DNA of 34,127 nucleotides, taken from sequence record SRR31156797_2062; one strand, given 5' to 3'. The notes under the pieces are model-generated. The model did not search any database. It worked only from the letters and a program-made list of their open reading frames with translations, and was not told the origin of the DNA. This document shows, piece after piece, positions 1-34,127 of the stretch. Within the stretch, counting starts at the first letter, position 1. Each line of letters begins with the position of its first letter. The translations under genes were made by a program, and so were the position numbers.

Positions 1-307
1 TTCTTAGACAAAGCGCACTATTCCCGCTTAAAACGACCTCTTATTCCTCGATTCTCGCCCTTCGAGTGCGATTGCATGCACAAGCCAGAAAAGTAAACCG
101 ACGTTGATTTCGCCCTAAGTGTCAGAAAAAGAACAGAGTATTAGAAAATGATGATTTCATCTTAATTCCCTTGCAAGACTTTGAACAAACAAGCTACTTG
201 CGTATGATGTCACCTGAAGAGACGCACGAACATCACAGATCATTTTGATGCGACGACAGAAGAAAAGAGTTGATGAATTAAATGCAGTTTTTACCCAATT
301 CAAAAAG

Positions 308-369
308 TGCTTAAAAATGTCTCAATTAGTATATTATAAATTATATACAAAATGAGACATTTTTAAGCA
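308..369. repeat. AT-rich palindrome (17-bp perfect arms); candidate replication origin or terminator
   Basis: tgcttaaaaatgtctca (308-324) / tgagacatttttaagca (353-369), plus inner gtatat/atatac; ends about 20 bp past the primase-helicase stop. Confidence 0.75.
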
Positions 370-388
370 ATTTAACGTATACCAGCTC

Positions 389-3300
389 TTATACCATCTC
401 CACTTTCTTAATTTTTTCGTCGAATGAGACGAGACTCTTACAGATGTCGCCTTTAAAATCTTTTGAAACGAGATATTCCCTGATGCCTGTGTTCCTCGAA
501 GTTGTAGTAACCTTTACCACAACGATCTTGAATGAATTTCTCCACCCATTGTGCCTTGAATCGAAATTGACAACATCCTTACTTTTCGCTCCGATCGCTT
601 TCGCTATCGCACCAGCCTTATTCTGAATAAAACCTTCCGTCTCAACTACTTTGATAATTTTCGATTTAAGCTCGCTCGACTTCGAATAGCCACCCGCAAG
701 CTCATGCCACTTGACAGTCTTGTCGATCATTATGTCCGAAACTGCATTCGACAAGATGAAAATATTCTTTTTCTTGTCCCCGTGTACATACCGAATCCTT
801 GCATCAGCCTGATAATTCTCACTCATGTCAGAGTGTTCCGATAGAGCTGCCAAAGAAGCGTCGTTGTACCGTAAATTATTAACAGTCACGTTTTCCTGCT
901 TACCAGGTGTCTCAATCACTACTTTCCTGTATGCCATATCTTCAATTGCGACACCTTTCCTTTCGTCGATGCTAAAGTCGTCCATCGACTTGATATGATC
1001 AAAAAGCAGCATAGCTTTATTCTTCAAAACGCCTGAAGCCAATTGATACCGTCCAACCCTCACGATGTTATCGTAATCAGAGAACCTATCAATACCCCTT
1101 AGCTTCCCAAACCAGATGAAATCATCTTCATGAACCCCCATAGCAAGAAATTTATCCTTGTATTTCATATACGATACTACACATGTTCTACCTTTGAGCT
1201 GGCTGATAAAGTTCTCAATCTTTTTCCAAGTTTCCTTGATACTCTCCTTGTATTTCCCATTGTCCTCATCAAGAGAAATTTTTGAGAAAGATTTGTCAAC
1301 CACCTGAGTTACCGTAATATTTTTACTGTAATGAGTCCTGACTTTATCAACACTGACCTCGTTTCCAACAAAAGCCCTCATTACAGATTCATTTCCAGAA
1401 GCATCAAGAAAAAGTTTTGCTGTATCCTTCCATTTAAAATTAATTTTTGCTCGATTTCCTACAAATATTTTGTCACTTACTAAGCCTGTTTTGCTATCTT
1501 TCACAGTAGAAATGAATTTTTTAGAATATTTTTCATTCATTTTTATTGAAAAATTGATTAAGTCCTCAGTTTTGTCGATTTTTTGTGATAAGTTTAAGAA
1601 CTTTCCCTCTCCTGCTTCGCCAAGAGTTATCTGTTCATTTTCAAATAATAATTCTTTTTCACTTTTAAGTCTATTTACTTCTTCTTTAAGATTTTTTATG
1701 TAATTTTTATCTACATTAACTTTGTTACCTTTTTTAACATCGTCCCAGACATGAATCAAGTCTTTAGTAAGCTCATTTTTAGTATATGAAATTGTATTTT
1801 TATCTAAATCAATAGCATTAGACAAACAATCTTCATCAACAATAACATAGTCAGCCTTGAATCCATCATCGTATCTAGCCGTATGGAACAAGTGATTATG
1901 AGTGTATATCCTAATTCTGTTCATAAAAATCATATCGTATTGTGATATGTAAGAACATTTTTTATATAACGATCTCATAGCTATTTCATTAAACTTTGAA
2001 TCGTCATCTTTATAGATTTTTTCTGACCCATGATTGCATTTTGAACACAATTCATTTCCAAGTTTTTTGAATACTTTCTCTGAATATTTATCTTTTTTCA
2101 AACACAACCTATCCATACCCTTAATTATTGCAATTTTGTCACGAATATTATAGTTGTCTTTTTTGTCTGTGCCAAGAGCTTCGCAAAGTTTAGCCTCAAT
2201 CTCATCAGCAAGAGCGTAATCTTTTACAAAAATAGCAATATTTTTTCCTATATTTGTTATACCTCTATTGAATTCAGCTACTCTTTCAATCATTTTAGCC
2301 GTTTTACCAGCCCCAGCTTCGTAAAATATGACCTTGTCCGTCTTATTATCAAAGTAGTCATCAATCAATCCAGCAAGCCTTTCGCTTGCTTTCTGAACAC
2401 TGACCCTGTCTGTTTGATATGTACCATTGTTTTCTGTTTTCCTTATTACTGCATGCCTACCTGTTAAAGCACTCCGCTTCCATCCATAATGTGTCGCTTC
2501 TTTGTATAGGGTACCAATAGTGAATTTGTTTCCAGATGCTTTGGCCTGACTCCTAACATCACTTTGCAGCTTCCTCTTGTCAGAATGAGTCCAATGCGCC
2601 AATAAGAGATTTACAGCAGAAGAACCAAGTTCAGAACCTACAGACCTGTTTACCTCGAACCTTCCACACCGACCGTTCCCTTGTCTCGCTGAACTGTATT
2701 TTAAATCTCGCGGAATATAGCCCAGAGCCTCTCTGATTGTTTCAATATCTGCTTTCCCATAATGAGCAGAAGACACTTTGTCCTTTACAGCCTCTTCCTC
2801 CGCCTGTCGCTTTTCTTCCATCAACCGAAACGCTTTGTCATTCAAGGTGATCATTTCAGCTTCGGTGTTCAGATACGCATCCTCGTCATGAGACAAGTAA
2901 CAGCCAAGCGAGATGCTTGCAGTGCTATCATCTAGAGTGATGTCCAAGCCAGAGTTGAACACAGATTCTTTTGCAATGCTGTAAGCCTGTACATAAGCAT
3001 CACTAATAGCACTCATGTCCTCACACTGAAAATCAGAAATCAGAGCAAACTTAACCCCACCAGACGGAGACAAAAAAGCGTAATACAAGCAAGATAAAGA
3101 CTTTAGCTGTTCAATAATCTTTCTACTTTCTTTTTCACTGTATTCATCTATATCAAATTGAATCAAACCTGTAGCCTTGACCCATTTGTTGTTATCGAAT
3201 ACTCCGTATTTTTCAAATTCGATACCCGGATAGAACATTCCCAAGTTTTGCTTTTTAAGTGCAGTTCTCTTTTCCTTTACTTCATTCCGAATTTGTTCGA

Positions 3301-3415
3301 CTGCTATTTTATAAGCCCCAGATGAAACTTTTTTTATAATATTTTCGACAGAAGCCCTCTGAACTTCTCGATCAAAAGTGCTGCCCTTAATGCTTGTATA
3401 AATAGTACTAGACAT
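389..3415 (-). CDS. Primase-helicase fusion: VirE_N/BT4734-like AEP domain, PriCT-2-like domain, SF2-like helicase, possible C-terminal HTH
   Basis: TGLIQFDID and AFLSPSGGVK (BT4734-type motifs); IREALGYIP...FTIGTLYKEATHYGW (PriCT-2-like); EAGAGKT Walker A, YVIVDED Walker B, FLDAS, GKLRGID, QADARIR. ATG at 3415 preferred over TTG at 3439. Confidence 0.8.
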   Translation of the reverse strand: MSSTIYTSIKGSTFDREVQRASVENIIKKVSSGAYKIAVEQIRNEVKEKRTALKKQNLGMFYPGIEFEKYGVFDNNKWVKATGLIQFDIDEYSEKESRKIIEQLKSLSCLYYAFLSPSGGVKFALISDFQCEDMSAISDAYVQAYSIAKESVFNSGLDITLDDSTASISLGCYLSHDEDAYLNTEAEMITLNDKAFRLMEEKRQAEEEAVKDKVSSAHYGKADIETIREALGYIPRDLKYSSARQGNGRCGRFEVNRSVGSELGSSAVNLLLAHWTHSDKRKLQSDVRSQAKASGNKFTIGTLYKEATHYGWKRSALTGRHAVIRKTENNGTYQTDRVSVQKASERLAGLIDDYFDNKTDKVIFYEAGAGKTAKMIERVAEFNRGITNIGKNIAIFVKDYALADEIEAKLCEALGTDKKDNYNIRDKIAIIKGMDRLCLKKDKYSEKVFKKLGNELCSKCNHGSEKIYKDDDSKFNEIAMRSLYKKCSYISQYDMIFMNRIRIYTHNHLFHTARYDDGFKADYVIVDEDCLSNAIDLDKNTISYTKNELTKDLIHVWDDVKKGNKVNVDKNYIKNLKEEVNRLKSEKELLFENEQITLGEAGEGKFLNLSQKIDKTEDLINFSIKMNEKYSKKFISTVKDSKTGLVSDKIFVGNRAKINFKWKDTAKLFLDASGNESVMRAFVGNEVSVDKVRTHYSKNITVTQVVDKSFSKISLDEDNGKYKESIKETWKKIENFISQLKGRTCVVSYMKYKDKFLAMGVHEDDFIWFGKLRGIDRFSDYDNIVRVGRYQLASGVLKNKAMLLFDHIKSMDDFSIDERKGVAIEDMAYRKVVIETPGKQENVTVNNLRYNDASLAALSEHSDMSENYQADARIRYVHGDKKKNIFILSNAVSDIMIDKTVKWHELAGGYSKSSELKSKIIKVVETEGFIQNKAGAIAKAIGAKSKDVVNFDSRHNGWRNSFKIVVVKVTTTSRNTGIREYLVSKDFKGDICKSLVSFDEKIKKVEMV

Positions 3416-3426
3416 ATATTTTTTTC

Positions 3427-3461
3427 GACGAGTAAGCAATCACCCCGACCGCTTACTCGTC
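3427..3461. promoter_or_regulatory. 11-bp perfect hairpin just upstream of the primase start codon
   Basis: gacgagtaagc (3427-3437) / gcttactcgtc (3451-3461); followed by a T-rich run on the + strand. Confidence 0.6.
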
Positions 3462-3499
3462 TTTCCTTTTTTCTTGTTGTTATTAAATTTATCGAATAA

Positions 3500-3548
3500 C
3501 GCAAAAAAGAGCGATAAGTCAAAAACAGACTTATCGCTCTTTTTTGCG
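3500..3548. terminator. Bidirectional intrinsic terminator-like hairpin (21-bp perfect inverted repeat)
   Basis: cgcaaaaaagagcgataagtc / gacttatcgctcttttttgcg with a 7-nt loop; T6 follows the core stem on either strand. Confidence 0.75.
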
Positions 3549-3586
3549 CTGTACAAACGCCTACCTAAGCCCAAGTGCACAAAAAA

Positions 3587-3614
3587 ATTGTATCACTTCG
3601 AATTATATAATCAA
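3587..3614 (-). promoter_or_regulatory. Candidate primase promoter (TTGATT-16-TACAAT with extended -10 TG)
   Basis: Minus strand reads TTGATT atataattcgaagtga TACAAT; AT-rich context lowers specificity. Confidence 0.45.
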
Positions 3615-3631
3615 ATTTTAATTAGACCTTT

Positions 3632-5425
3632 CTAAAGCTTGACCTCATGATCTTTCACTAAATCGTAATGCTCATCCGATATATTCGGGTTGTTTCTGAA
3701 CATTTCAAGAGACTCCTCAGTAAGCCTATTATCTGCATTCGTCTCCATGCGATACACTAGCTTATTTTCCTTAGCATTATTACCTAAGACCAGAACACCA
3801 CCACCCTTGAAAAATATTTCTATTTCCCTGAACTGCGTCATTTTATTACCAGCAGAAAGTACCTCATCTCTATCAAGCTCTAACCACTCTTTGTAATGCT
3901 TTCCAGCAGCATAAACTTTTATGACATCTACCAACTTCCTGATCGCCAACTGCACTCTGCGCCTACAGTCCAGCCTGATTTCATCGTCATCAGAATTCAA
4001 GTCAGATATCACCTCCAACAAAGAATCCAGTGACCGCTGAGTATTTTCATGAACACTTATCAGCCGTAGAAGCTCATTTTCAAGCGCCTCCTTTTCCTTC
4101 TTTAGTTCCCGCTGTGCTTCATGCTCTGCATCAATACGCTTTGTGAACAGCTTTACCGTGTCTGCACTCCCTTCCAAAAGAGCATCTGTCAACCGCTGCA
4201 CAGCTTTTTCGGACACATGTGTCTTACTTTCTAGGGTACAGATAGAAGCTTCCAAGTTCTTAATCTTTTGTTGATTTTCATCGTACCCATGACTCACGAT
4301 GTCGCTCACATCAAGCCGCTTGCAGAGAAGCAAAAAAGCTTCCTCAAAATGATCATACCGAAGCGAAAACATGTTCGGTATTTCACAAGTTTTTCTCCTA
4401 GCATTCGAGCAAGAGAGATACCGAAGATTTTTCTTTCCTCTTGATGAATAATACATCGAAGCACCGCAGTACCCGCATTTCACGACTCTTGAGAAAAGAT
4501 TTTTCATCTCTCCTACTTTTCCATATCCACCGCTTTGTTCTTTCTTTAAAGCGATTAATCTTTGGACTGCATAAAAATCTTTTTCGGAGATAATAGGCGG
4601 GTAGTAATCAGGTATTACTTCATGGACTTCTTTTGTGATCTTTCCATCAGCTTTGTTCTTGATTTTATTACTGAATGCTATTTCACCCAAGACTGATCTT
4701 GAAGTCAGAACCAACTTGACACTAGCTGACCGCCACCCGTTTTTGCAATTCTGAAACGTCTTTCTCTTTTCTTTGTTGAGTACCCTGTAAATTGACATCG
4801 TGCCATGACCATCAAGATACATTTTGAATATTTTACGAACAGTATCAGCATGTTCCGGTACTTCTACAAAACGATTATTCCTTTTGTCCAGTTTAAGCCA
4901 AGCAACGCACCTCGCATTCATCTTGACGCCGTTTCGTGCACCTTCACGGGCCTTGTCCCATGCATATACGCGTCTATTCTGTTTTGTCAGAGACTCTTCA
5001 TGAGCACGAGCCATTACTAAAATTGAAATTATGAGCTGACTTGTATCTTTACTCAGAGACTTCTTGTCGTATATTTGCTTGTCCATCAAAGTAACAATTG
5101 TGATGCCAGCATTGACGATTCCAAGAAATTCTTGCAACGCAATCGATACAGATTCTCTTGATAAGCGATCTAAATTTTCAACTATAAGAGCTGACGGCGT
5201 TTGTACCTGCCCTTGTTTAACTGCCTCTAAGAAAGCGCCAAGACTGCCTTTCCATTTATGTTCACCACGAAAACCGCTGTACCCCAGATCGTACATGCAA
5301 AGCGACTCATCGAGAACCCAGCCTTTCTTTGATACGAATTCCCTAGTCTTTTCCATCTGTCTTTCATAAGATCTACCAGCAGCCTGCTTCTTCGAGCTAA
5401 ACCGTATGTAACTATAGCAATTCAT
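3632..5425 (-). CDS. Large serine recombinase (integrase)
   Basis: YSYIRFSS catalytic Ser motif, VENLDRLSR, recombinase domain, zinc ribbon CGYCG...C...C, coiled coil; 597 aa. Confidence 0.95.
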   Translation of the reverse strand: MNCYSYIRFSSKKQAAGRSYERQMEKTREFVSKKGWVLDESLCMYDLGYSGFRGEHKWKGSLGAFLEAVKQGQVQTPSALIVENLDRLSRESVSIALQEFLGIVNAGITIVTLMDKQIYDKKSLSKDTSQLIISILVMARAHEESLTKQNRRVYAWDKAREGARNGVKMNARCVAWLKLDKRNNRFVEVPEHADTVRKIFKMYLDGHGTMSIYRVLNKEKRKTFQNCKNGWRSASVKLVLTSRSVLGEIAFSNKIKNKADGKITKEVHEVIPDYYPPIISEKDFYAVQRLIALKKEQSGGYGKVGEMKNLFSRVVKCGYCGASMYYSSRGKKNLRYLSCSNARRKTCEIPNMFSLRYDHFEEAFLLLCKRLDVSDIVSHGYDENQQKIKNLEASICTLESKTHVSEKAVQRLTDALLEGSADTVKLFTKRIDAEHEAQRELKKEKEALENELLRLISVHENTQRSLDSLLEVISDLNSDDDEIRLDCRRRVQLAIRKLVDVIKVYAAGKHYKEWLELDRDEVLSAGNKMTQFREIEIFFKGGGVLVLGNNAKENKLVYRMETNADNRLTEESLEMFRNNPNISDEHYDLVKDHEVKL

Positions 5426-5465
5426 TATGATTTTTCTCTTCGCTTATATTAATGTCTCGTAGCTT

Positions 5466-5494
5466 ATTATACCTCCGTCCTAGATGTATGTCAA
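5466..5494 (-). promoter_or_regulatory. Perfect consensus sigma70 promoter of the recombinase
   Basis: Minus strand TTGACA (5494-5489) - 17 bp - TATAAT (5471-5466), 40 bp upstream of the ATG. Confidence 0.85.
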
Positions 5495-5530
5495 ATAGTG
5501 CATCTTGTCTATATCGGTTACCTGCTCCTG
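5475..5530. other. Putative hybrid att site (element/lysE junction, crossover near 5501-5503)
   Basis: LysE-like reading frame begins abruptly at H-L-V-Y-I-G, where G-x-x-Y-L-x-Y-I-G is expected; upstream sequence is the recombinase promoter, with an in-frame TAG at 5495-5497. Confidence 0.65.
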
Positions 5531-5878
5531 CGGGCACCCAAAAGACCTATAACACAAAATAAAGGGGGAGGGATCCTGCGCCAGCAATCACTTATCCGCC
5601 AATTTGCTCTTGGGTTTGCTTCAGCATGTCTCAACCCTAAAAATGCTATCTTTTATCTTTCCCTGTTCACCGTTATGGTATCGACAGAAACACCTCTTGC
5701 AATACGCACACTCTATGCCATCTGGATGACCAGTATCGTCTTTATCTGGGATATAGGGATAGCTGCAGTGATTGGAAACAAACGAGCCAAAAACTACCTG
5801 GAAAAATGGATATTCGGATTGGAAAAACTCTCAGGCCTGATGCTCTCCCTGTTTGGAATTTTGCTCTGCCTGGATTGA
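5501..5878 (+). pseudogene. 3' half of a LysE/RhtB-family exporter gene, interrupted by the element
   Basis: LVYIGYLLLR, GF...LNPKNAIFYLSLF and EKLSGLML are C-terminal LysE motifs; the N-terminal PGP-containing part (roughly 75 aa in typical members) is missing. Confidence 0.85.
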
Positions 5879-5992
5879 TAACTCCAGCTCAAGACAAAGC
5901 TTTTTGTGAAAAGGGCAAGCCGCCTCCCTTTATTTAAGGTAAAGGTTTTTCAACCTCTGTTTTTTCAATTTACTTTTCAAAGAGAGGAAAAG

Positions 5993-6361
5993 ATGAGTGA
6001 ACAAATAAAAAAAAAGGAATTCTATTTCCGCGAAGGCTGTTTTATCACCGAGCTATACAACACCGTACATGATCCAGCATGCTCGGTTGCACAAGCCAGA
6101 GTTCTTCCCGGCACAACCACCAGATGGCACAGTCTTGACGGAATCATTGAACGCTACCTTATCCTTGAGGGACAAGGGGAGGTGGAAATCGGCGACACAC
6201 CTCCACAAAGCGTGAAGACAGGGGATACAGTAATCATACCAGGTGGAACACGGCAGCGTATCCGTAATACTGGCAAGGTGAACCTGCTCTTCCTTGCCGT
6301 GTGTACGCCCAGGTTCACAGAAAATAAATACAAAGACCTTGAGCAACAGTGTATTGGATAG
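5993..6361 (+). CDS. Cupin domain protein
   Basis: PGTTTRWHSL...ERYLILEGQG...GDTVIIPGG motifs; GAGAGG RBS before ATG 5993. Confidence 0.9.
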   Translation: MSEQIKKKEFYFREGCFITELYNTVHDPACSVAQARVLPGTTTRWHSLDGIIERYLILEGQGEVEIGDTPPQSVKTGDTVIIPGGTRQRIRNTGKVNLLFLAVCTPRFTENKYKDLEQQCIG

Positions 6362-6391
6362 GGGTTACGGTTTTCGTGCTGAGCACCACCT

Positions 6392-6553
6392 TTATTTCCT
6401 GCGGAGCTGCAGCACCCCTACAACAATCAGAATAAGCGGCCACCATTCCCGTAAAATGGCTTTGACCTGGCCCATGGGCAGAAAATTGAGATTAGAGAGC
6501 AGAAAAAACGCTCCTACTACGATCAGAATAATCGGAAAGACCTGTGAACCCAT
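6392..6553 (-). CDS. Small membrane protein, DUF5668/LiaF-like (53 aa; absent from ORF track)
   Basis: Hand translation MGSQVFPIILIVVGAFFLLSNLNFLPMGQVKAILREWWPLILIVVGVLQLRRK; AAAGGGA RBS; WPLILIxxG motif. Confidence 0.8.
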   Translation of the reverse strand: MGSQVFPIILIVVGAFFLLSNLNFLPMGQVKAILREWWPLILIVVGVLQLRRK

Positions 6554-6628
6554 ATAGTCCCTTTATTATAAAAAAACGTGTGATTTTGTATCCGCTCTCA
6601 CGATGACTCCTCTCACCAAGGCTACCTG

Positions 6629-7225
6629 CTACTGCTGCTCTGCGTTATCCCTGTCAGTTGATCCAGGAAGCAACCGTATCCGCTTTGCTTCATACACAGA
6701 AAGAACAAAGAGGGTTGCCATGGGGGTGGTGAACAAAGAGCCCAGTCCAGTGGAACTCCCGAGCGAAGTAAGCACCAAGTAGACTGCGACAACTGCAAGA
6801 TGTTCCGTAATCGGCTTTTGCATGGCCATTCTGGAACTTTCCTGCAATGCCTCGAAAAGGCCAAACTGCTGATCTGTCATCAGCGGCAACATATACATGC
6901 AGAAAAAAGCAACAGCAAGAATAACGGCCAATCCGGGCAGAACCAGCATCGCCAACCCAAAAAAAACAGCAATCCCTATCAGAATCCCAAAGCCAACCAG
7001 CGGTAGAAAAAGACGCATTTCAGCAAACAGGTCTTTTATTTCCGGTTTTCTTCCCTCCCGTATTGCCAGCAGGAGCGACTGCATGTATCCCGCGGTCAGG
7101 ACCGGAGCCAGAATGCCAAGGGTCAGCATGGAGGCACCGAGTAGAATAACGGTGGAAATGAGCAGAGAAGGGAGAAAGGACGTAAACACCTGCCACGATT
7201 TCTCAAAATGTTGTTTAAAATCCAT
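6629..7225 (-). CDS. Hypothetical multi-pass membrane protein
   Basis: Several hydrophobic segments; AAAGAGGA RBS before ATG 7225. Confidence 0.8.
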   Translation of the reverse strand: MDFKQHFEKSWQVFTSFLPSLLISTVILLGASMLTLGILAPVLTAGYMQSLLLAIREGRKPEIKDLFAEMRLFLPLVGFGILIGIAVFFGLAMLVLPGLAVILAVAFFCMYMLPLMTDQQFGLFEALQESSRMAMQKPITEHLAVVAVYLVLTSLGSSTGLGSLFTTPMATLFVLSVYEAKRIRLLPGSTDRDNAEQQ

Positions 7226-7484
7226 ATAATCCTCTTTTTCCATTTATAAAATTCAGAATCACCATAAACAACAGGGGGATATGAAGCAAGCACAATGGCT
7301 TGTCAGGAGCTGTCTGCAAATAAGTTGGAAAATATCGCGCTCATAATTAGGTTAGATTTGGGTGATCTAATTGAACAAAGCCGCAGGGGTAGTTGTGCTG
7401 CGTTGAGGACTTTGTGATTGAAGATCTGCCAAAGATGACCTGAATATGCAATGCGAGATATTCAAGTTATTTCCGGACACCTCC

Positions 7485-8855
7485 TTACTCTCCCTGGAAG
7501 AGATGATCGGCAAGTTCATCCACAGTGCGGACCGGCACACATCGCATCCCGGCTTTTCCCGCCCCTTCCACTTGGCGTATGCAGGACTCAGGCATGATAA
7601 AGGTGGAAAACCCAAGCCGCTCAGCTTCCCGCAACCGCATTTCCATCTGGCCTACCGCCCGAATTTCTCCGGCAAGCCCCACCTCGCCGCAAACAACAGT
7701 TGTAGGGGCAATGGTCTTTTCAAAGAGGCTTGACAACAACGCCACCACCATGCCCAGATCCAGTGCGGGTTCATCAATACGTATCCCACCGGCTATATTT
7801 AAAAAAATATCATGATCAAAAAGAGTTACGCCCAGTTTTTTTTCCAAAACAGCGGTCAGCAGTGCCAAACGCTGCGGATCAGCACCAATGGCTGTTCTGC
7901 GAGCGTTTCCGGGGCTGGATCTGCTTACCAGCGCCTGAACTTCAACCAAGATCGGCCGCGTCCCCTCAATGGAAGGCATCACCACTGATCCCGGCACATT
8001 AACGGGTCGTTCTGCAAGAAATAAAGCGGAAGGGTTGGCAACCTCAGCCAGTCCGTTCTCCTTCATTTCAAACACGCCGATTTCATTGGTTGAGCCGAAC
8101 CTGTTCTTGACCGTGCGTACAATCCGAAACACCTGGCCCCGGTCACCCTCAAAATAAAGGACCGTATCAACCATATGCTCCAACACTCTGGGCCCAGCAA
8201 TGGAGCCATCCTTGGTCACATGCCCAACCAGTAAAACCGGTAGGTCACGACTTTTGGCAAGGGTCAGAAGCCGGGCAGTTGACTCCCGTACCTGGGTGAC
8301 AGAGCCTGGAGCTGAACCGACCTCTTCGCTGTACATGGTCTGAATCGAATCAACAGCCAAAAGCACCGGCTGCATATCGCGAGCCAAATCAATAATGGAT
8401 TCGACACAGTTTTCAGTTGATATATAGATATGGGGACTGTCAATCTTGAGCCTTTCTGCCCGCATACGAATCTGCTGCGCGGATTCTTCACCGGTCACAT
8501 AAAGCACATGTTTATCCTGCCCACTGAGGGCAGCCAGCAACTGAAGGATCAGAGTGGATTTACCTATCCCAGGGTCACCACCGATCAAAATCATAGAGCC
8601 GGGAACAATTCCGCCGCCAAGCACCCTGTCCATTTCATTAATGGACGTCACCAATCGTGCAAGTTCTTTGTCCTTTACAGCCTGGAGTGACTCCGGTTTA
8701 CTAGCTGTTGCTCGTGAAGCCTTTTCCTGAACCTGCTTCTGTTCGCTCAAAGTGTCCCAGGCTGAACAATCTGGGCACTGCCCCAGCCATTTTCTGCTCT
8801 CATGTCCACATTGAGAACAGACAAAAACGGTCTGTATCTTTTTTTTAGGGGGCAT
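7485..8855 (-). CDS. radA: DNA repair protein RadA/Sms
   Basis: N-terminal C4 zinc finger, GDPGIGKST, KNRFG motif, Lon-like C-terminus. Confidence 0.98.
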   Translation of the reverse strand: MPPKKKIQTVFVCSQCGHESRKWLGQCPDCSAWDTLSEQKQVQEKASRATASKPESLQAVKDKELARLVTSINEMDRVLGGGIVPGSMILIGGDPGIGKSTLILQLLAALSGQDKHVLYVTGEESAQQIRMRAERLKIDSPHIYISTENCVESIIDLARDMQPVLLAVDSIQTMYSEEVGSAPGSVTQVRESTARLLTLAKSRDLPVLLVGHVTKDGSIAGPRVLEHMVDTVLYFEGDRGQVFRIVRTVKNRFGSTNEIGVFEMKENGLAEVANPSALFLAERPVNVPGSVVMPSIEGTRPILVEVQALVSRSSPGNARRTAIGADPQRLALLTAVLEKKLGVTLFDHDIFLNIAGGIRIDEPALDLGMVVALLSSLFEKTIAPTTVVCGEVGLAGEIRAVGQMEMRLREAERLGFSTFIMPESCIRQVEGAGKAGMRCVPVRTVDELADHLFQGE

Positions 8856-9732
8856 CTTTTTGATCTGCCTGCAAAAAAATCATTTTATACATCCTTCTGT
8901 ACTCGGCAATACTGCTTTGATCGAGCCACCTTTCATAGGCGGCTCGGTACCTTTCTGTGGGTCGTTGTTCTTGTAGAACCTTATTGATGACCGTGATGGC
9001 TTTTGCTCCCCAAGAATTTTTAGAACAGGCAACATAAGTCAGCATGGCATCATGATCATCAAGATTTTCCTCCACAGACAGGGTCATAATCTGATCCTTG
9101 ATTCCCATTTTTTCAGCAAGATACATGGCCTCCTCTGGGAGTCCAGGCATTGCTTGAATACGCCCAGCCAAAAGCATCTTGAAAAGATTTAAGGACAATT
9201 CAGGCCCTTCATAGGAAAAAAGGTTGTCCTGATTACCAAAGGTGTTCAGGAGTTCATCGAAGGCACCCCCGTAGGAACGTTTGGCTGCCCGGCCAATGAT
9301 AAAGTTATTGCTGGTAAGCACACCCTTAAGGCTCACGACCTTCTTTCCACCAAAAGCAGCAAAATGCTCTTTTTTTATAATCAGTACCGCTGGCAAGGTA
9401 AAAACACTGGAAATAGAAAACAGGGCAATCTCCTCCCTTTCCGGTGTTTTATACATAGCCAGACTGCAGGCAGGTTCACCTTGTTTCCACTGCTGATAGT
9501 GACGGGAAATATTGGCAGGCATGGATATATGGTCATATTGGGGCATGTTCTCCTTGAGAATATCAGTAATAAGATCTTCATACCCCTGCCCTTTCAACTC
9601 GCCCTCGTGGATAAAAAAAGGTGGCGCAACAGCCTCCATCCAATACATTTTTTCCTTTGCCATAAGGACTGCAGGAATCAGTAGGATGCCCACCGCTAGT
9701 ATGTATGATACGATTCTTTTTTCACGTTGCAT
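8845..9732 (-). CDS. TIGR02285-like periplasmic solute-binding protein
   Basis: Signal peptide, PPFFIHEG, KTPERE, YVACSKNSWG; start 9732 preferred (ORF extends to 9777). Confidence 0.8.
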   Translation of the reverse strand: MQREKRIVSYILAVGILLIPAVLMAKEKMYWMEAVAPPFFIHEGELKGQGYEDLITDILKENMPQYDHISMPANISRHYQQWKQGEPACSLAMYKTPEREEIALFSISSVFTLPAVLIIKKEHFAAFGGKKVVSLKGVLTSNNFIIGRAAKRSYGGAFDELLNTFGNQDNLFSYEGPELSLNLFKMLLAGRIQAMPGLPEEAMYLAEKMGIKDQIMTLSVEENLDDHDAMLTYVACSKNSWGAKAITVINKVLQEQRPTERYRAAYERWLDQSSIAEYRRMYKMIFLQADQKDAP

Positions 9733-9784
9733 AAAGTCCACACTTTTACATATTATCCGGTGCCATTTCGCTATCAATTAAATA

Positions 9785-29664: not shown

Positions 29665-32067
29665 GTGAGGAAAAGAGCATTGACCGCCCCTACAAAACTA
29701 TATCTCCCATACATATATTTTCTTACCCTGCTCACGGGTATCCTTTTATTGCCTTACCAACAAGGGACGGCGGCTCCACTAGAAAATACTCCACAAAAAA
29801 CAGTATCCCAACCAGTGACAACCACGGACAATGCCACCATAACAAACATGATGGCTGGCCTCAGCGACGAACAGGTAAGAAAGCTGCTTATCCATGAACT
29901 TCAGCAAGATGCTCAGCACCTGCAACCTGAAGGAAAACAAATAAAAGGCCCAGCAAGCCTGTTCCATCACACCCTTAAGGCACTTTCCCAAAAGCATGAC
30001 AAAGAGGAGAGCCAGTTCAGAATGCTCTGGTCTGGCGCCCCAAACATCCTCCCAGACCTGGAAAACGTCTTTATCAAGCTGTGTCCTTTTGGAACTGTTC
30101 AAGGTGCATGGCAAAGTGCTCTTTGGGTGCTTTTCTTTATCTGCATAGGGTTTGCAACGGAAGCAGTCTTTAGGTATTTCTTCATCTCAAAATACTTCAT
30201 AGCTACACCTGAGGTGAACACTGCAATCATCAAAGGGGTTGAAAAACTCATTGCCGCCATCCTACTCGTACTTCCCAACATACTGGGTCTACTCTTTTTT
30301 TTCGGTGCATCTTACTTTTCTTTCATGTTCTTCATCTGGACGGATTCCCCTTATGTCCAGTTCTTTTTTCTTGCCACCTTGCTTACGATTACCACCATCA
30401 GGACAATCAATATCCTCTCTCACATCATTTTTTCTCCCCAGTATAAAATATTTCGTATATTTCCTGCTGACTGCGGGGCAGCAAAAACGGCCCACCGCCT
30501 TACGACGGGAGCCTTCAGTTATATAACCATCACCCTGATGCTGGTAACCACACTTCGTCGGCTCGACGCAGATATAGCAACGGTAAGACTCCTACAGCTC
30601 TTTAGTGTCAGCCTCCTGCTCTTCATAACTGCTGCTGCCATTGTTGTTATCAGAAAAAATGTCCGTGCCCATATCCTCGCAAACAGCAACCACCAAAGCG
30701 GCCACCCTTCCTGGGGACGCAAACAATTCGCTTCGCTCTGGCATATTTTGGCCATCACCTACCTCATCCTGCTCTGGTTTCTGCTCCTTAATGACCTGGC
30801 CGACCCAAGCTACAGCCGAAGAGGTGCGTTTATTCCCAGCTTTTTCATTTTTCCCCTGTGGATAGTAGCAGACCGCTTTGTCCAGTGGCTGGTCCTTTAC
30901 ACTATGAAGACACTTCATATTCACGAGGATGGTGACCTACCAGCCCCCAAAATAACCGATGAAGAAATCCTTCGGCACCAAAAGGGGCTGGAACTGTATC
31001 AAAAAACCAAAACCGTCGCTCGGGTTGGCTTGGTACTCCTCATGATGGTTTGGATAGCAAACCTCTGGGATATCCGCATTCCTCTTTTTTCTGAGCTTGC
31101 TGCCATCCTTATGGACACCATCGTCATCGTGGCGCTGGCAATTTTCATGTGGCAGCTTATCAGCAGCTGGATTGAGCGTAAAATTGAAGAATCACTTCCA
31201 GAGGGAGAGGAAGACGCAGAAAAGAATGATGACGAGTGGGGGAGTGCTGCATCACGCGGCCGCGCCTACACCCTACTGCCCATGGTTCGTAAGTTTCTCG
31301 GCACTATCCTGATCGTAATGGTAACCATGACAATGCTCTCGTCATCCGGGGTAGACATCGCGCCTCTGCTTGCCGGTGCTGGAGTAATCGGCCTTGCAAT
31401 CGGTTTTGGTGCTCAAAAACTGGTTGCCGACATGTTTTCCGGGTTCTTTTACCTGCTTGATGATGCATTTCGGGTGGGAGAATATATTGAGGCGAACACG
31501 GTCTCTGGTACGGTGGAAACGATAACCTTACGCAACGCCATGATAAGGCATCACAGAGGCATGCTGCAGATTGTTCCCCACTCTGACCTTGGAGCCATCA
31601 CCAACTATATGCGCGGCGGCATAATCGTCAAATTCAACCTTGATTTCCCCTATGATGCGCCAATAGACAAAATACGTAAAATTATTAAAAAGGTCGGCCA
31701 GAAAATGCTCCAAAACGAAGAATACGGCAAGGACTTTATCAGACCGCTAAAATCGCAGGGGGTACGAGAGATAACCAATTCTGTGATGACTATCAGGGTC
31801 AAGTTTACCGCCCAGCCAGGTACCCATTTTGTGATTCGACGAGAAGCCTTTCGTCTTATCACCGAAGCACTCACTGCTCAGGGGATACACTATGCCCACC
31901 GCAAGGTCATTGTTGATTTACCAGAATTTACCCAGGAAAGAGAGCAGATACCCCCAGAGGCTCAAGACAAAATTTCCAGGGCCGCCGGCGCAGCTGCCAT
32001 GCGCTCTGCAGAAGATATTGAAAAAGTCCCCCAGCAATCCAGACAAGAGACTTTTGACGATTTATGA
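29665..32067 (+). CDS. Large MscS-family mechanosensitive channel
   Basis: LLAGAGVIGLAIGFGAQ..D.FSG, FRVGEYI, GTVE.ITLR; long N-terminal TM region. Confidence 0.92.
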   Translation: MRKRALTAPTKLYLPYIYFLTLLTGILLLPYQQGTAAPLENTPQKTVSQPVTTTDNATITNMMAGLSDEQVRKLLIHELQQDAQHLQPEGKQIKGPASLFHHTLKALSQKHDKEESQFRMLWSGAPNILPDLENVFIKLCPFGTVQGAWQSALWVLFFICIGFATEAVFRYFFISKYFIATPEVNTAIIKGVEKLIAAILLVLPNILGLLFFFGASYFSFMFFIWTDSPYVQFFFLATLLTITTIRTINILSHIIFSPQYKIFRIFPADCGAAKTAHRLTTGAFSYITITLMLVTTLRRLDADIATVRLLQLFSVSLLLFITAAAIVVIRKNVRAHILANSNHQSGHPSWGRKQFASLWHILAITYLILLWFLLLNDLADPSYSRRGAFIPSFFIFPLWIVADRFVQWLVLYTMKTLHIHEDGDLPAPKITDEEILRHQKGLELYQKTKTVARVGLVLLMMVWIANLWDIRIPLFSELAAILMDTIVIVALAIFMWQLISSWIERKIEESLPEGEEDAEKNDDEWGSAASRGRAYTLLPMVRKFLGTILIVMVTMTMLSSSGVDIAPLLAGAGVIGLAIGFGAQKLVADMFSGFFYLLDDAFRVGEYIEANTVSGTVETITLRNAMIRHHRGMLQIVPHSDLGAITNYMRGGIIVKFNLDFPYDAPIDKIRKIIKKVGQKMLQNEEYGKDFIRPLKSQGVREITNSVMTIRVKFTAQPGTHFVIRREAFRLITEALTAQGIHYAHRKVIVDLPEFTQEREQIPPEAQDKISRAAGAAAMRSAEDIEKVPQQSRQETFDDL

Positions 32068-32151
32068 TTAAATGTCGGCTGTAAGGGGCATGCTCCTAAA
32101 AATCACCCCTCCGACGACCGACTTTCTTCCAATGCCTGTAGACGTGGATCT

Positions 32152-32400
32152 TTATCGCGTAGCCAAGGTCGTCTTTATCTCTTCGTAACTGATAACCTGA
32201 ATCTCAGCCTCGCTGTTTTTAGACTTCACCCTGACAGGCACCATGCTGTCTTTGTCCAATGGGATCATTTGCGGCTCTTTTTCATTCACAAACAGTATAA
32301 TAACCGGAGCTTTAACGGTATCCTCCATCCGAAATCCTTCCAAACGTGTGGTTTCCTTGTCGACAAAAACGGTATCGCCCTGTATTTCAATCATATCCAA
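32152..32400 (-). CDS. Hypothetical protein (~80 aa)
   Basis: GGAG RBS, protein-like composition, no recognised family. Confidence 0.6.
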   Translation of the reverse strand: MDMIEIQGDTVFVDKETTRLEGFRMEDTVKAPVIILFVNEKEPQMIPLDKDSMVPVRVKSKNSEAEIQVISYEEIKTTLATR

Positions 32401-32609
32401 AGTCTCTCCATATAAAATTCAAAATATTTTTACTGCCCGTTACCCGCATCCCACACTTTATCGAGCAGTACTATAACCGATTAAAAACCTTCCCCTTATC
32501 AAGAGGAAGTGTCAGATCGAATCACAGCTCAGACACCCCTATCCGTCTTAATTCACCGGATGTCGGCAATAGCTTTTTTTTAGTGAGATAATCTGCACTG
32601 AACTGACTG

Positions 32610-33407
32610 TCAGTGAATTATCGTTATCAATCCAGCAAAATACTCACTGGCTTTGAGTAAGTGTGATTCGTACCAGGAAAACATTTCACCATCTACCAAT
32701 TCAATTTTTGCGTTGGGAACAATCTGCTGAAACTCTTCTTTATTTACTTCTGCAAACGGAAAAGGTTCCGACGAAAGCAAAATGAGCTCTGGGTTCAATT
32801 CCTTAATTCTTTCAACAGTTAAAACAGGATACCTCTCCTCTGTATCAGTGATACTATTTTCGAGACTACACATTTCAAGCATCGAGTTGACAAAAGTATC
32901 CTGACTAACACACATGTAAGGGTTTTTCCAAATAAAATATAAAGCTTTAACCTTGTTTGCTTTCTTAGGTATTATAGCAAAATCAGCTTTAATCGTATTG
33001 GCCATTTCAAGCGCTTCAGACTCGGTCCCAGTCATCTTACCCGTTTGCAAAATATTGTTTAATGCATCTCCCAGGTTTCTTATTTTTGATACATAAACAT
33101 TATACTTATCCATTAAAGATTCAATTTGCGCCTTATCGTTTTCCTCTTCATTCGCCAAAATTAAATCAGGATTTAACAATGCAATTTCCTCTTCGTCTAA
33201 ACTTTTAGGTCCTCCAATATTGGGTAGGGAGTTTATTTTTCCCTCGGGATATATGCAAAATTCAGTACGCGAAACCACCCTACTTCCTATTCCCAAATCA
33301 AATAAAAATTCGGTAGTTGACGGAACAGCCGAAATAATTCTTTGAGGGGGAAAAGGAATGCTCATTTCTCGCCCTAAATCATCGGTTACTTTTATAAAAT
33401 TTCTCAT
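32610..33407 (-). CDS. BtuF/TroA-like helical-backbone metal-complex binding protein
   Basis: PPQRIISAVPSTTEFL, GGPK, PDLILANEEEN, LLSSEPFPF, DGEMFSWY. Confidence 0.88.
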   Translation of the reverse strand: MRNFIKVTDDLGREMSIPFPPQRIISAVPSTTEFLFDLGIGSRVVSRTEFCIYPEGKINSLPNIGGPKSLDEEEIALLNPDLILANEEENDKAQIESLMDKYNVYVSKIRNLGDALNNILQTGKMTGTESEALEMANTIKADFAIIPKKANKVKALYFIWKNPYMCVSQDTFVNSMLEMCSLENSITDTEERYPVLTVERIKELNPELILLSSEPFPFAEVNKEEFQQIVPNAKIELVDGEMFSWYESHLLKASEYFAGLITIIH

Positions 33408-33866
33408 AATGTAATACTCTTTTATCGAGCTGGTGAGAAATCCGGGCTAACCCTGCATAACCATCTGGTTACATTCGCACAATTAGCATGAATCATACCT
33501 CAATTTAGTTCAGAGAAAAGGCTAATAAACCAAACTTAATTAATGCTCACAATTTCTGCGTGATAGGGGAAAAAATCATTTAAGTTCGACGCCCCTTCCG
33601 TTCTTACACGTAATAATATGAATATGTAATCTCGACAACCCCGCCCGATCCAAAAAAGCGCTAATTAACAGCCCTTTGGTATCATCTTGCCAAAGCCGAG
33701 CTGCCTCTTAATTGTCACTGTACCGCCACGTGGACGCGCCATTCTTCTACACAGAGTAAACAATATTAGTCTATATCAAAACACAACTTCGCAAATCGAA
33801 AACCCACCGCAACTTTTACTATATTTCAATTTGTTGTATTCTATGCAATAACACCTCCAGAATTAT

Positions 33867-34127
33867 ATCCTCGAAAAAAAGCTTTAAAGCCGGCGACGAA
33901 ACGAAAGTTGGTTGATTATATCAGACATACGTTTGGGTTGAGTGTTCGCGCGATTTGTCGGCTTCTGGGGCTGAGTCGAACCGTATATGCTTATAAACCG
34001 AACATCCATGAAGATGATGAAGTGGTCATCACTTTGAGTGAATTGGTCGGAGATTAAACGAGATCTGGTTTTCAAAAGCTGTTCCAGGTGCTGAGAAAAA
34101 AGGACATGGCTGGAACCATAAACGGGT
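33867..34127 (+). pseudogene. Degenerate IS3-family transposase fragment (end of orfA and start of orfB), runs off the window
   Basis: ILEKKL* over an A7G slippery site (33874-33881); -1 frame KPATKRKLVDYIRHTFGLSVRAICRLLGLSRTVYAY; in-frame TAA at 34055; further frameshift before GHGWNHKRV. Confidence 0.88.

Follow-up and report, generated by a model that had tools for sequence, protein, structure and literature searches.

A mobile island inserted into lysE

The stretch of DNA analyzed here, 34,127 nucleotides of sequence record SRR31156797_2062 (hereafter the window), begins inside a mobile island and continues into the chromosome of its bacterial host. The island part carries two long genes on the minus strand, one for a primase-helicase fusion, P0002 (389-3415, 1008 aa from the ATG at 3415), and one for a large serine recombinase, or integrase, P0001 (3632-5425, 597 aa). 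These adjoin a 126-aa frame on the plus strand (5498-5878) that represents the 3' two-thirds of an interrupted lysE gene, which encodes an exporter of the RhtB/LysE family. A preliminary description, made from the sequence letters, had named the same three features and proposed that the element is integrated in a lysE gene, and our results agree with it on each of these points. The 597-aa recombinase has three Pfam domains, and the fusion of approximately 1008 aa was recognized from Pfam family PF08800, motifs conserved in alignment A2, the helicase matches of its relatives and a modeled fold resembling XPD and DinG. The LysE frame does begin in mid-protein, covering positions 69-191 of the 193-position Pfam LysE profile and starting 73 nt from the recombinase start codon, compared with the approximately 75 bp first described. 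It lacks the first third of the profile, its match to TIGR00949 in NCBIfam is below the cut-off, and genuine lysE sequence within it runs from approximately 5508-5512 rightward.

Comparison with relatives that have an empty site demonstrated that the truncation of lysE is a true insertion. We located relatives of the host through the neighboring radA gene, among 401 genomes of the class containing a named Desulfobulbaceae metagenome-assembled genome (MAG), and the two closest, G113 and G230, have RadA proteins 94% and 96% identical to that of the window. Both carry an intact lysE of approximately 202 aa (L083:8805-9413 and L153:1695-2336), so that the site is empty in two of two closest relatives and neither shares the truncated gene. 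At the DNA level both genomes resemble the window from 5508 onward, across the cupin gene and radA and further, with approximately 78% identity between the window's part of lysE and the intact genes. No homolog of P0002 was found in five genomes searched (G113, G230 and three further relatives), and the sole match to P0001 in these genomes was a weak and partial one in G113 (27% identity over 123 residues, E 5.2e-7). Because lysE is intact in relatives that lack both element genes, and because similarity resumes at 5508, we conclude that a mobile island was inserted into this gene. A related integrase found at the same site in another sample, described below, agrees with this conclusion.

The composition of the window is in keeping with a host-island boundary at this position. 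The G+C fraction is 0.32-0.42 over positions 1-6000 and 0.43-0.52 over most of the remaining window, although the last 2 kb (32001-34000) are also lower, at 0.39-0.41. The remaining window is ordinary chromosome, with genes for a hybrid histidine kinase, pyruvate kinase, glycogen phosphorylase, glycerate kinase, PEP carboxykinase and others, and the host is a Desulfobulbia-like bacterium. No tRNA gene was found in the window. In a family sample of 41 genomes around G113, a DNA search located the lysE stretch that would serve as attB in only three, once weakly, and we base no statement about the target range on these counts. Two host open reading frames (ORFs) beside radA, both on the minus strand (6629-7243, 204 aa, and 8845-9777, 310 aa), had no Pfam match at the thresholds used, and the 204-aa ORF had no NCBIfam match either; both fall within the segment syntenic with G113.

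The integrase and its attachment site

P0001 matched the Pfam families Resolvase (PF00239, residues 4-162, E 3.1e-15), Recombinase (PF07508, E 1.1e-19) and Zn_ribbon_recom (PF13408, E 4e-10), as well as PHROG 95, annotated as 'integrase' (E 1.5e-74). In alignment A1 (19 sequences, P0001 and 18 relatives), residues R8, S10 and Q14 of the nucleophile region were kept in at least 90% of the sequences, and the DRLSR motif (D86-R90) and the zinc-ribbon cysteines C317, C320, C339 and C347 were invariant. The catalytic Ser10 and the zinc-ribbon residues are conserved, and the integrase, judged by its sequence, is intact. Its best NCBIfam matches were CcrB, XisF and CcrA, all far under the cut-offs (58.7 bits vs 900 for CcrB and 40.2 vs 700 for CcrA), no phage integrase in the phage collection exceeded 32% identity to it, and a sequence search of solved structures in the PDB returned no match at E 0.001 or better. 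An exact-peptide scan for close relatives in species-representative genomes gave 81 stretches, none of them confirmed. The alignment-based scan of the same genomes yielded 136 relatives, of which 79 loci were kept, with a best identity of 47%. The closest named relatives, at this 47%, were in two Desulfopila genomes (L001:9084-11803 and L043:9125-11845), where the integrase gene lies directly after an ORF of approximately 270 aa that follows kdtA. The domain scan covered this ORF in L001 (its equivalent in L043 has 269 aa) and identified a DUF4131 fragment, corresponding to the N-terminal part of comEC; the L001 arrangement suggests that the integrase lineage also targets comEC. Downstream in L001 is a gene for a protein with a phage tail lysozyme domain.

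The attachment site was approached through assembled contigs of public sequencing runs. Run X1, the likely source run, holds the whole stretch, and X2 and X3, two runs of one other marine sample, hold part of it; nothing from run X4 was placed on the window. When the X2 and X3 contigs (13,168 and 11,503 nt) were placed on window positions 1-7500, they matched only 3638-5511, which comprises the integrase gene and the adjoining 86 nt (5426-5511). They differed from the window at 157 of these 1874 nt (approximately 92% identity), consistent with a protein, P0003, that is 89% identical to P0001 and is encoded on a 40-kb contig. Beyond 5511 the X2 and X3 contigs run into a loose end of 30 letters, 29 of which agree with L153 (plus strand) and 28 with L083. 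This stretch is the reverse complement of the 5' half of lysE (that of G230 in L153) and is directly preceded by TA in both relatives. A close relative of the integrase therefore occupies the same position in lysE, in the opposite orientation, in another sample.

We regard 5426-5511, bounded by the X2/X3 junctions and by the host similarity that begins at 5508, as the element-side attachment arm, which adjoins the integrase gene and ends at the putative crossover. The letters that could belong to either element or host are TCTA (5508-5511) in the window and TA only (5510-5511) in the X2/X3 contigs. Because the overlaps of the two junctions share only TA, the crossover would be this dinucleotide, at 5510-5511, provided that both elements cut attP at the same place. 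A TA core fits the 2-bp crossover of serine integrases, whose attachment sites are short and lack a long direct repeat. For these enzymes, the central dinucleotide is described as the sole determinant of the orientation of integration (PMC3783163, citing Ghosh et al. 2003 and Smith et al. 2004). Since TA is self-complementary, a site with this core would have no polarity, and integration in either orientation, or inversion in place, would be possible. The opposite orientation of the related insertion would be explained by such a non-polar core.

Contigs of X1 break at 5518-5545, just to the right of the junction, and a separate 169-nt contig covering 5518-5686 has a depth of 29.2, compared with 22.5 and 22.4 for its neighbors. 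A second lysE allele, either empty or differently occupied, might be present in the sample and account for the breaks and the extra depth. No joints that would mark a circular form or a restored attB were listed among the run contigs placed on the window.

A perfect sigma-70 consensus promoter (TTGACA, 17-nt spacer, TATAAT; 12 of 12 positions) lies within the attachment arm on the minus strand, from 5494 to 5466. It faces the integrase gene and is 16 nt from the putative crossover. Its position within the arm suggests that integrase bound at its own site could repress its own promoter, a form of autoregulation. Past the integrase stop codon, between it and the start of the P0002 gene, is a perfect 21-nt inverted repeat, I2 (3500-3548), flanked by runs of A and T and folding into a 23-bp stem (-36.7 kcal/mol, z -9.8, matched by none of 200 shuffles). 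The repeat resembles an intrinsic terminator that acts in both directions and, given this terminator-like hairpin between them, the two genes are probably separate transcription units. A simple terminator scan found 4 candidates where 3.4 were expected, none of them convincing and I2 not among them; it was a repeat search combined with folding that revealed the strong hairpins. A further hairpin (3427-3461, in the minus-strand segment 3412-3470; 15 bp, -24.3 kcal/mol, z -7.4) ends 11 nt before the P0002 ATG, and no obvious Shine-Dalgarno sequence lies between the two; translational control of P0002 is possible. A 62-aa ORF at 3334-3522 was considered as a recombination directionality factor and was dropped, as it overlaps the start of P0002 and has no family match.

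These features bear on whether the element is a dead remnant, that is, an old insertion that can neither excise nor replicate. Such a reading could draw on the lack of a directionality factor, second attachment site or origin in what is seen, and on the absence of circular joints among the run contigs. We nevertheless consider it very unlikely, as both long ORFs are open and have conserved catalytic residues, the integrase gene has a perfect consensus promoter, the two closest genomes have empty sites, and a relative of approximately 92% identity sits at the same site in the other orientation in another sample, which implies recent activity of the integrase lineage.

The primase-helicase and the islands that carry its relatives

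The open frame of P0002 extends over 389-3439 on the minus strand and would encode 1016 aa from a TTG at 3439, but similarity to its relatives begins at the ATG at 3415. Residues 63-189 matched BT4734-like_N (PF08800; E 2.1e-11, 44.5 bits vs a cut-off of 22.4), a family of primase-polymerases that count among archaeo-eukaryotic primases (AEPs). A match to the NCBIfam model of CRISPR-associated PrimPol type B (PrimPol_Db) was below the cut-off. With PADLOC, we obtained matches to VirE-PriCT2 associated with defense reverse transcriptases (DRT; E 8.6e-17) and to CRISPR-associated PrimPol (1.5e-14), both below cut-off, and a weak match to typeIV_DinG (0.004). P0002 belonged to no PHROGs family and had only chance-level matches in a sequence search of the PDB.

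Conserved motifs were read from alignment A2, which contains 40 mostly full-length relatives of P0002. Motifs I (DxD/E) and III (hD/E) of the AEP superfamily are described as binding metal, and motif II (sxH) as binding nucleotide (PMC5862659). The motif I aspartates D96 and D98 were invariant and the motif III residue D185 was present in at least 90% of the sequences. In the region of motif II, S124 was invariant within a conserved SPSGG stretch that is not followed by a conserved histidine; the BT4734-like family is described as having its own conservation pattern (PMC11724360). The remainder of the protein has the signature of a helicase, with invariant Walker A residues G376, G378 and K379, an invariant Walker B residue E536 preceded by D535 in at least 90%, and invariant Q877, R881 and R883 in a motif VI-like position. 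Four cysteines (C446, C465, C468 and C495), each in at least 90% of the sequences, lie between Walker A (K379) and Walker B (D535). The Fe-S domain of XPD-family helicases sits between these same two motifs, and the spacing of the P0002 cysteines may be like that of XPD; the P0002 helicase is probably Fe-S-bearing. Among the 40 relatives, Pfam recognized BT4734-like_N in 39, ResIII in 28 and DEAD in 21, these last two being the only helicase families matched, and P0002 itself matched no XPD/DinG-specific Pfam family.

An AlphaFold model built on A2 had a mean predicted local distance difference test score (pLDDT) of 85.7 and a predicted template-modeling score (pTM) of 0.80, with poor confidence in the cysteine region (residues 471-479 and 481-490 below a pLDDT of 50). 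In a Foldseek comparison with solved structures, the top matches were XPD and DinG (E 6.7e-13 to approximately 1e-9, TM score by target 0.4-0.5, root-mean-square deviation approximately 10 A), with CasDinG and DdmD further down the list. The best matches in a library of viral structures included unnamed proteins of 953-1085 aa, aligned over approximately 810 columns, and also 'DinG Rad3-related' helicases, VirE-N primase-helicases and a 'replication origin-binding protein'. We conclude that P0002 is a BT4734-like AEP primase-polymerase fused to a superfamily 2 (SF2) helicase, probably of the XPD/DinG fold, and not to a helicase of the SF3 or DnaB type that is usual in such fusions. For an XPD/DinG fold, 5'-3' polarity of unwinding would be predicted. 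PrimPols of the BT4734-like family are described as having primase and polymerase activity and as pairing with helicases in the replication of mobile genetic elements (MGEs) (PMC11724360). P0002 is probably the island's own replication enzyme.

The P0002 family is rare. A HMMER scan of 1.84 billion representative proteins gave 543 relatives at E<=0.001 and 72 at E<=1e-30, with a best identity of 43%; a word-index protein search had returned a single relative, so the full scan was needed. An Atlas cluster with the domain content of P0002 is labeled 'hypothetical protein'. Searches of 50,697 phage records and 72,556 plasmid records yielded no full-length relative; five phage records matched over 19% of the query each, in the AEP part only, and five plasmid records over at most 30% of it each. 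In IMG/VR viral contigs, the single-protein scan gave 7 stretches and the alignment-based scan 83, none of them confirmed. The single-protein scan of metagenome contigs of the Joint Genome Institute (JGI) gave 82 stretches, again none confirmed, and no copy of the window or near-identical copy was found there. By contrast with the single-protein scan, the alignment-based scan of metagenome contigs recovered 68 loci of the P0002 family.

We chose 21 of these loci by eye (>8 kb, non-redundant), predicted 281 ORFs in them and scanned 238 against Pfam. All nine ORFs of L104, whose left flank repeats L111, were dropped along with 34 ORFs of far flanks, leaving 20 loci. A site-specific recombinase lies near the family member in 13 of the 20. 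Six loci have the tyrosine type (L092, L094, L098, L111, L142 and, as a DUF6538 protein, L102), eight have small resolvases (L100, L102, L114, L121, L127, L131, L137 and L140), and three have large serine recombinases (L114, L127 and L140). The cargo of the loci is typically defense-like and includes type I restriction-modification (R-M) systems, a cytosine methylase with HNH, methylase-Mrr, AAA_15/21 ATPases, reverse transcriptases, and proteins with TIR, PIN, NYN and FRG domains. Among the 238 ORFs of the 20 loci, Pfam detected no family of capsid, portal, terminase, tail, relaxase or type IV secretion proteins.

One of these loci, L102:4791-16027, is a complete island of approximately 11.2 kb at a tRNA-Phe gene, delimited by 25-nt direct repeats. 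The 3' end of the tRNA gene, which stops at 4866, recurs at 15833 and 16003 (25 nt, 80% and 96%). Within the island are the integrase-like DUF6538 protein, a Sel1 protein, the P0002 family member, a resolvase and a C5 methylase with HNH (an R-M pair). The three copies of the tRNA 3'-end repeat, one of them 170 nt from the last, look as if two successive insertions had taken place. Other related islands also lie at tRNA genes, L098 at tRNA-Arg and L094 near tRNA-Phe. The P0002 family thus recurs in islands similar to that of the window.

Several observations concern individual loci. In 3 of the 20 loci (L121:8826-9545, L125:2710-3429 and L131:8833-9612), the gene immediately upstream of the family gene, and divergent from it, encodes an FRG-domain protein (PF08867), which may be a conserved partner in one subfamily. 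In L127:15481-18953, a 673-aa large serine recombinase abuts a comM-like gene of the Mg-chelatase family, 2.6 kb from the family member; a type I restriction enzyme and a resolvase are encoded on the other side. Two insertion sequence (IS) transposase ORFs of the rve type in L117 (83-1252 and 8694-9863), on the same strand and with identical Pfam scores, lie on either side of a 730-aa truncated family member and a Rep_1 gene for rolling-circle replication, an arrangement that resembles a composite transposon.

The same body of evidence allows two other interpretations of the gene pair to be weighed. One is that the 5.5 kb in view represent only the integrase end of a far larger prophage or integrative and conjugative element (ICE), with P0002 as its early replication gene. 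Phage integrases of P0001's class normally lie at one end of the prophage, next to attP, and the window does stop inside the element, with more DNA to the left. The Desulfopila integrases at 47% identity lie beside a gene with a phage tail lysozyme domain, and the library of viral structures gives primase-helicase-like matches of approximately 950-1085 aa. We consider this interpretation improbable, however, in view of the lack of full-length P0002 relatives in the phage records and IMG/VR contigs, the lack of phage structural or conjugation families in the 20 loci, and the size, approximately 11 kb, of L102, the sole fully bounded example of the family. The breaks of the X1 contig 625 nt to the left of the window and approximately 34 nt to the right of the junction would fit both attachment junctions, which we take as a hint only.

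The other interpretation is that P0002 is a defense or repair effector, carried as cargo of a defense island moved by recombinases and acting, for example, against invading DNA in the manner of CRISPR-associated PrimPols, CasDinG or DdmD. The PADLOC matches to VirE-PriCT2, PrimPol and, weakly, type IV DinG are in line with such a role, as are the appearance of DdmD and CasDinG among the fold matches and the richness of family-locus neighborhoods in type I R-M, AAA_15/21, TIR, reverse transcriptase, PIN and FRG genes; BT4734-like PrimPols are also described in defense contexts (PMC11724360). Yet the P0002 family is the constant gene beside changing recombinases and cargo, as a core maintenance module behaves, and P0002 is the only gene besides the integrase seen in the window's part of the element. 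Fusion of primase and helicase is, moreover, described as a standard replicase architecture of MGEs (PMC5862659, PMC7581432). An effector role for P0002 is accordingly unlikely in our judgment, and we favor a replicase.

Kinship, mechanism and significance of the island

The visible part of the island is not its whole. Downstream of the P0002 gene, positions 1-388 form a non-coding tail, with no ORF of at least 50 aa even when open-ended frames are included. Its 34-nt inverted repeat, I1 (304-373), has a folding energy of -29 kcal/mol (z -8.9), and the tail is a candidate for a terminator, an origin or both. The origin of Staphylococcus aureus pathogenicity islands (SaPIs) is described as lying directly downstream of the rep gene (PMC7581432), and for this reason 1-388 is the first place to look for an origin here. 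The X1 contig that covers 1-5545 extends 625 bases to the left of base 1 and stops approximately 34 nt to the right of the putative crossover, and both the X2 and the X3 contig end 9.4 kb past the integrase stop. Either contig break could mark an attachment junction, although contig ends are no proof of this. The element measures at least 6.1 kb and, given the at least 625 nt more on its left and the 9.4 kb beyond the integrase in the relative's contigs, the terms 'minimal' and 'self-replicating' used in the preliminary description are inferences.

An island with an integrase and its own primase or helicase, and without transfer genes, is an established kind of element, represented by the staphylococcal cassette chromosome (SCC), phage-inducible chromosomal island (PICI)-like elements (PLEs), tycheposons and virion-encapsidated integrative mobile elements (VEIMEs). 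The preliminary description did not recognize the combination as a named family; its kind is thus known, but the P0002 family as a hallmark of such islands seems undescribed. We found no description in the literature of a BT4734-like AEP joined to an XPD/DinG-like four-cysteine helicase as a recurrent core gene of islands, though the supplementary tables of the cited papers may list such proteins.

SCC elements, including SCCmec, are one parallel and are described as carrying serine recombinases and a helicase-primase operon, with replication after excision proposed but not shown in vivo (PMC7581432). Like the window element, they are islands moved by large serine recombinases (Ccr), with their own helicase and primase genes (Cch/Cch2) and without their own transfer machinery, located in a conserved host gene. 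They differ in that the window's target is lysE, not the 3' end of rlmH, and the Ccr matches of P0001 are far below equivalog cut-offs. The window's replicase is a fusion of an AEP with an XPD/DinG-like SF2 helicase, whereas SCC has an MCM-like or SaPI-Rep-like helicase and a primase of the A-family polymerase type, and the window's host is Desulfobulbia-like, in contrast to the staphylococci.

Tycheposons and VEIMEs are described as small islands with a tyrosine-type or, in a minority, a large serine integrase, genes for autonomous replication and variable cargo (bioRxiv 10.1101/2020.12.28.424599; PMC9618062). The loci of the P0002 family resemble these elements, for example L102 at tRNA-Phe. 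Tycheposons, however, were defined in Prochlorococcus and lie mostly at tRNA genes, with a partial tRNA repeat, whereas the window copy is inside a protein-coding gene, and VEIMEs are defined by their presence in virus particles, while P0002 relatives were not found in IMG/VR contigs. The PLE of Vibrio cholerae uses a large serine recombinase (PMC6002521), and PLE and PICI satellites (int plus pri-rep) share with the window element an integrase at one end and an adjoining primase/helicase module (satellite features in PMC9618062), a likeness of domain content only. No repressor/AlpA, excisionase, small terminase or capsid-redirecting gene, as in PLE, PICI and P4-like elements, was found in window 1-5511 or among the 238 ORFs of the 20 related loci, though the part of this copy to the left of the window may hold some. 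The window element is also without a known helper phage and has no sequence relationship to these satellites beyond shared superfamilies.

Integrated elements that carry an AEP are on record in general (PMC5862659), and two AEP systems resemble P0002 itself. The AgaPP protein associated with prokaryotic Argonaute (pAgo) belongs to the same BT4734-like (VirE-N) AEP family and is described as working with the 5'-3' helicase AgaPH as a replication module derived from MGEs (PMC11724360). Its helicase, however, is a separate PriCT-DUF3987 protein, and in BT4734 itself the partner domain is VirE, whereas in P0002 the AEP is fused to a four-cysteine, XPD/DinG-like SF2 helicase. Phage proteins of the All3500 family (pVOG1685/9714, UL9-like origin-binding proteins) have an AEP followed by a remote SF2 helicase-like domain and are predicted to act in replication (PMC5862659); P0002 likewise has origin-binding-protein and helicase-primase matches in the viral structures. 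However, the AEP of P0002 is BT4734-like, and P0002 had no full-length sequence match in the phage collection.

On balance, we think it probable that the window begins inside a small integrative island whose integrase recombines attP with the lysE site at TA and whose P0002 replicates the excised circle. P0001 would join attP to an attB inside lysE, near codon 70, cutting at the TA at 5510-5511, so as to leave the 3' part of lysE on the right and, presumably, its 5' part beyond the far end of the island. The integrase would be expressed from its own strong promoter in the attachment arm, with the strong terminator hairpin following the gene. Excision would need a directionality factor. Replication of the circle would then start at an origin close to the replicase gene, for which the non-coding DNA just downstream of that gene is a likely location. 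Primers would come from the AEP domain, opening and unwinding of the excised circle would fall to the XPD/DinG-like SF2 helicase, and host polymerases would finish the process. Transfer to other cells would require assistance from outside, for instance by phage particles, vesicles or transformation.

A number of observations weigh against this model. The TA assignment comes from one junction in each of two elements of approximately 92% identity, not from attP or attR. The left end of the island, the 5' half of lysE and the second attachment site are outside the visible sequence, no candidate directionality factor was found in the visible part of the element, and positions 1-5600 contain no iterons, noteworthy tandem repeats or other origin signature. 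P0002 itself has no Pfam helicase match, only its relatives do. Both BT4734-like PrimPols and DinG-type helicases also occur within defense systems (PADLOC; described for the former in PMC11724360), so a non-replicative role is possible. The integrase lineage also serves prophage-like elements, since its Desulfopila relatives sit in comEC beside the gene with the phage tail lysozyme domain. Seven of the 20 family loci (L085, L109, L116, L117, L125, L139 and L143) have no recombinase. Finally, P0002 was absent from all 79 loci with related integrases, bar one weak and partial match in L052, and the X2/X3 contigs diverge from the window right after the integrase stop. A search of other genomes for the gene pair, as the preliminary description had suggested, therefore did not find it conserved, although L140 has a large serine recombinase followed by a family member, in the same order as the window. 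Because the pairing of integrase and replicase is not fixed, we conclude that the two modules are exchanged independently.

A broader proposal, which we offer tentatively and regard as possible but doubtful, is that the fusion of a BT4734-like primase-polymerase with a Fe-S XPD/DinG-like helicase (approximately 1000 aa) could be the signature replicase of an unnamed and widespread group of self-replicating islands of approximately 10 kb. Such islands would swap integrases (tyrosine types at tRNA genes or guaA, small resolvases, and large serine types in protein genes) and ferry defense genes without phage or conjugation genes, and P0001 would naturally use a self-complementary TA, inserting or flipping either way.

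The general concept of an island that combines an integrase with a replicase is established, and the window copy is only half visible. If confirmed, the locus would nevertheless represent a serine integrase with a defined natural attB, in a conserved stretch of lysE. Its apparently non-polar TA core is relevant to the use of serine integrases as integration tools and, if true, would be a natural case of the loss of polarity that has so far been produced only by mutation of attachment sites. P0002 would be a compact candidate for a one-protein replication initiator, with an arrangement that is apparently uncharacterized as far as our searches show. Islands marked by the P0002 family appear to be carriers of anti-phage defense genes in marine and sediment bacteria.

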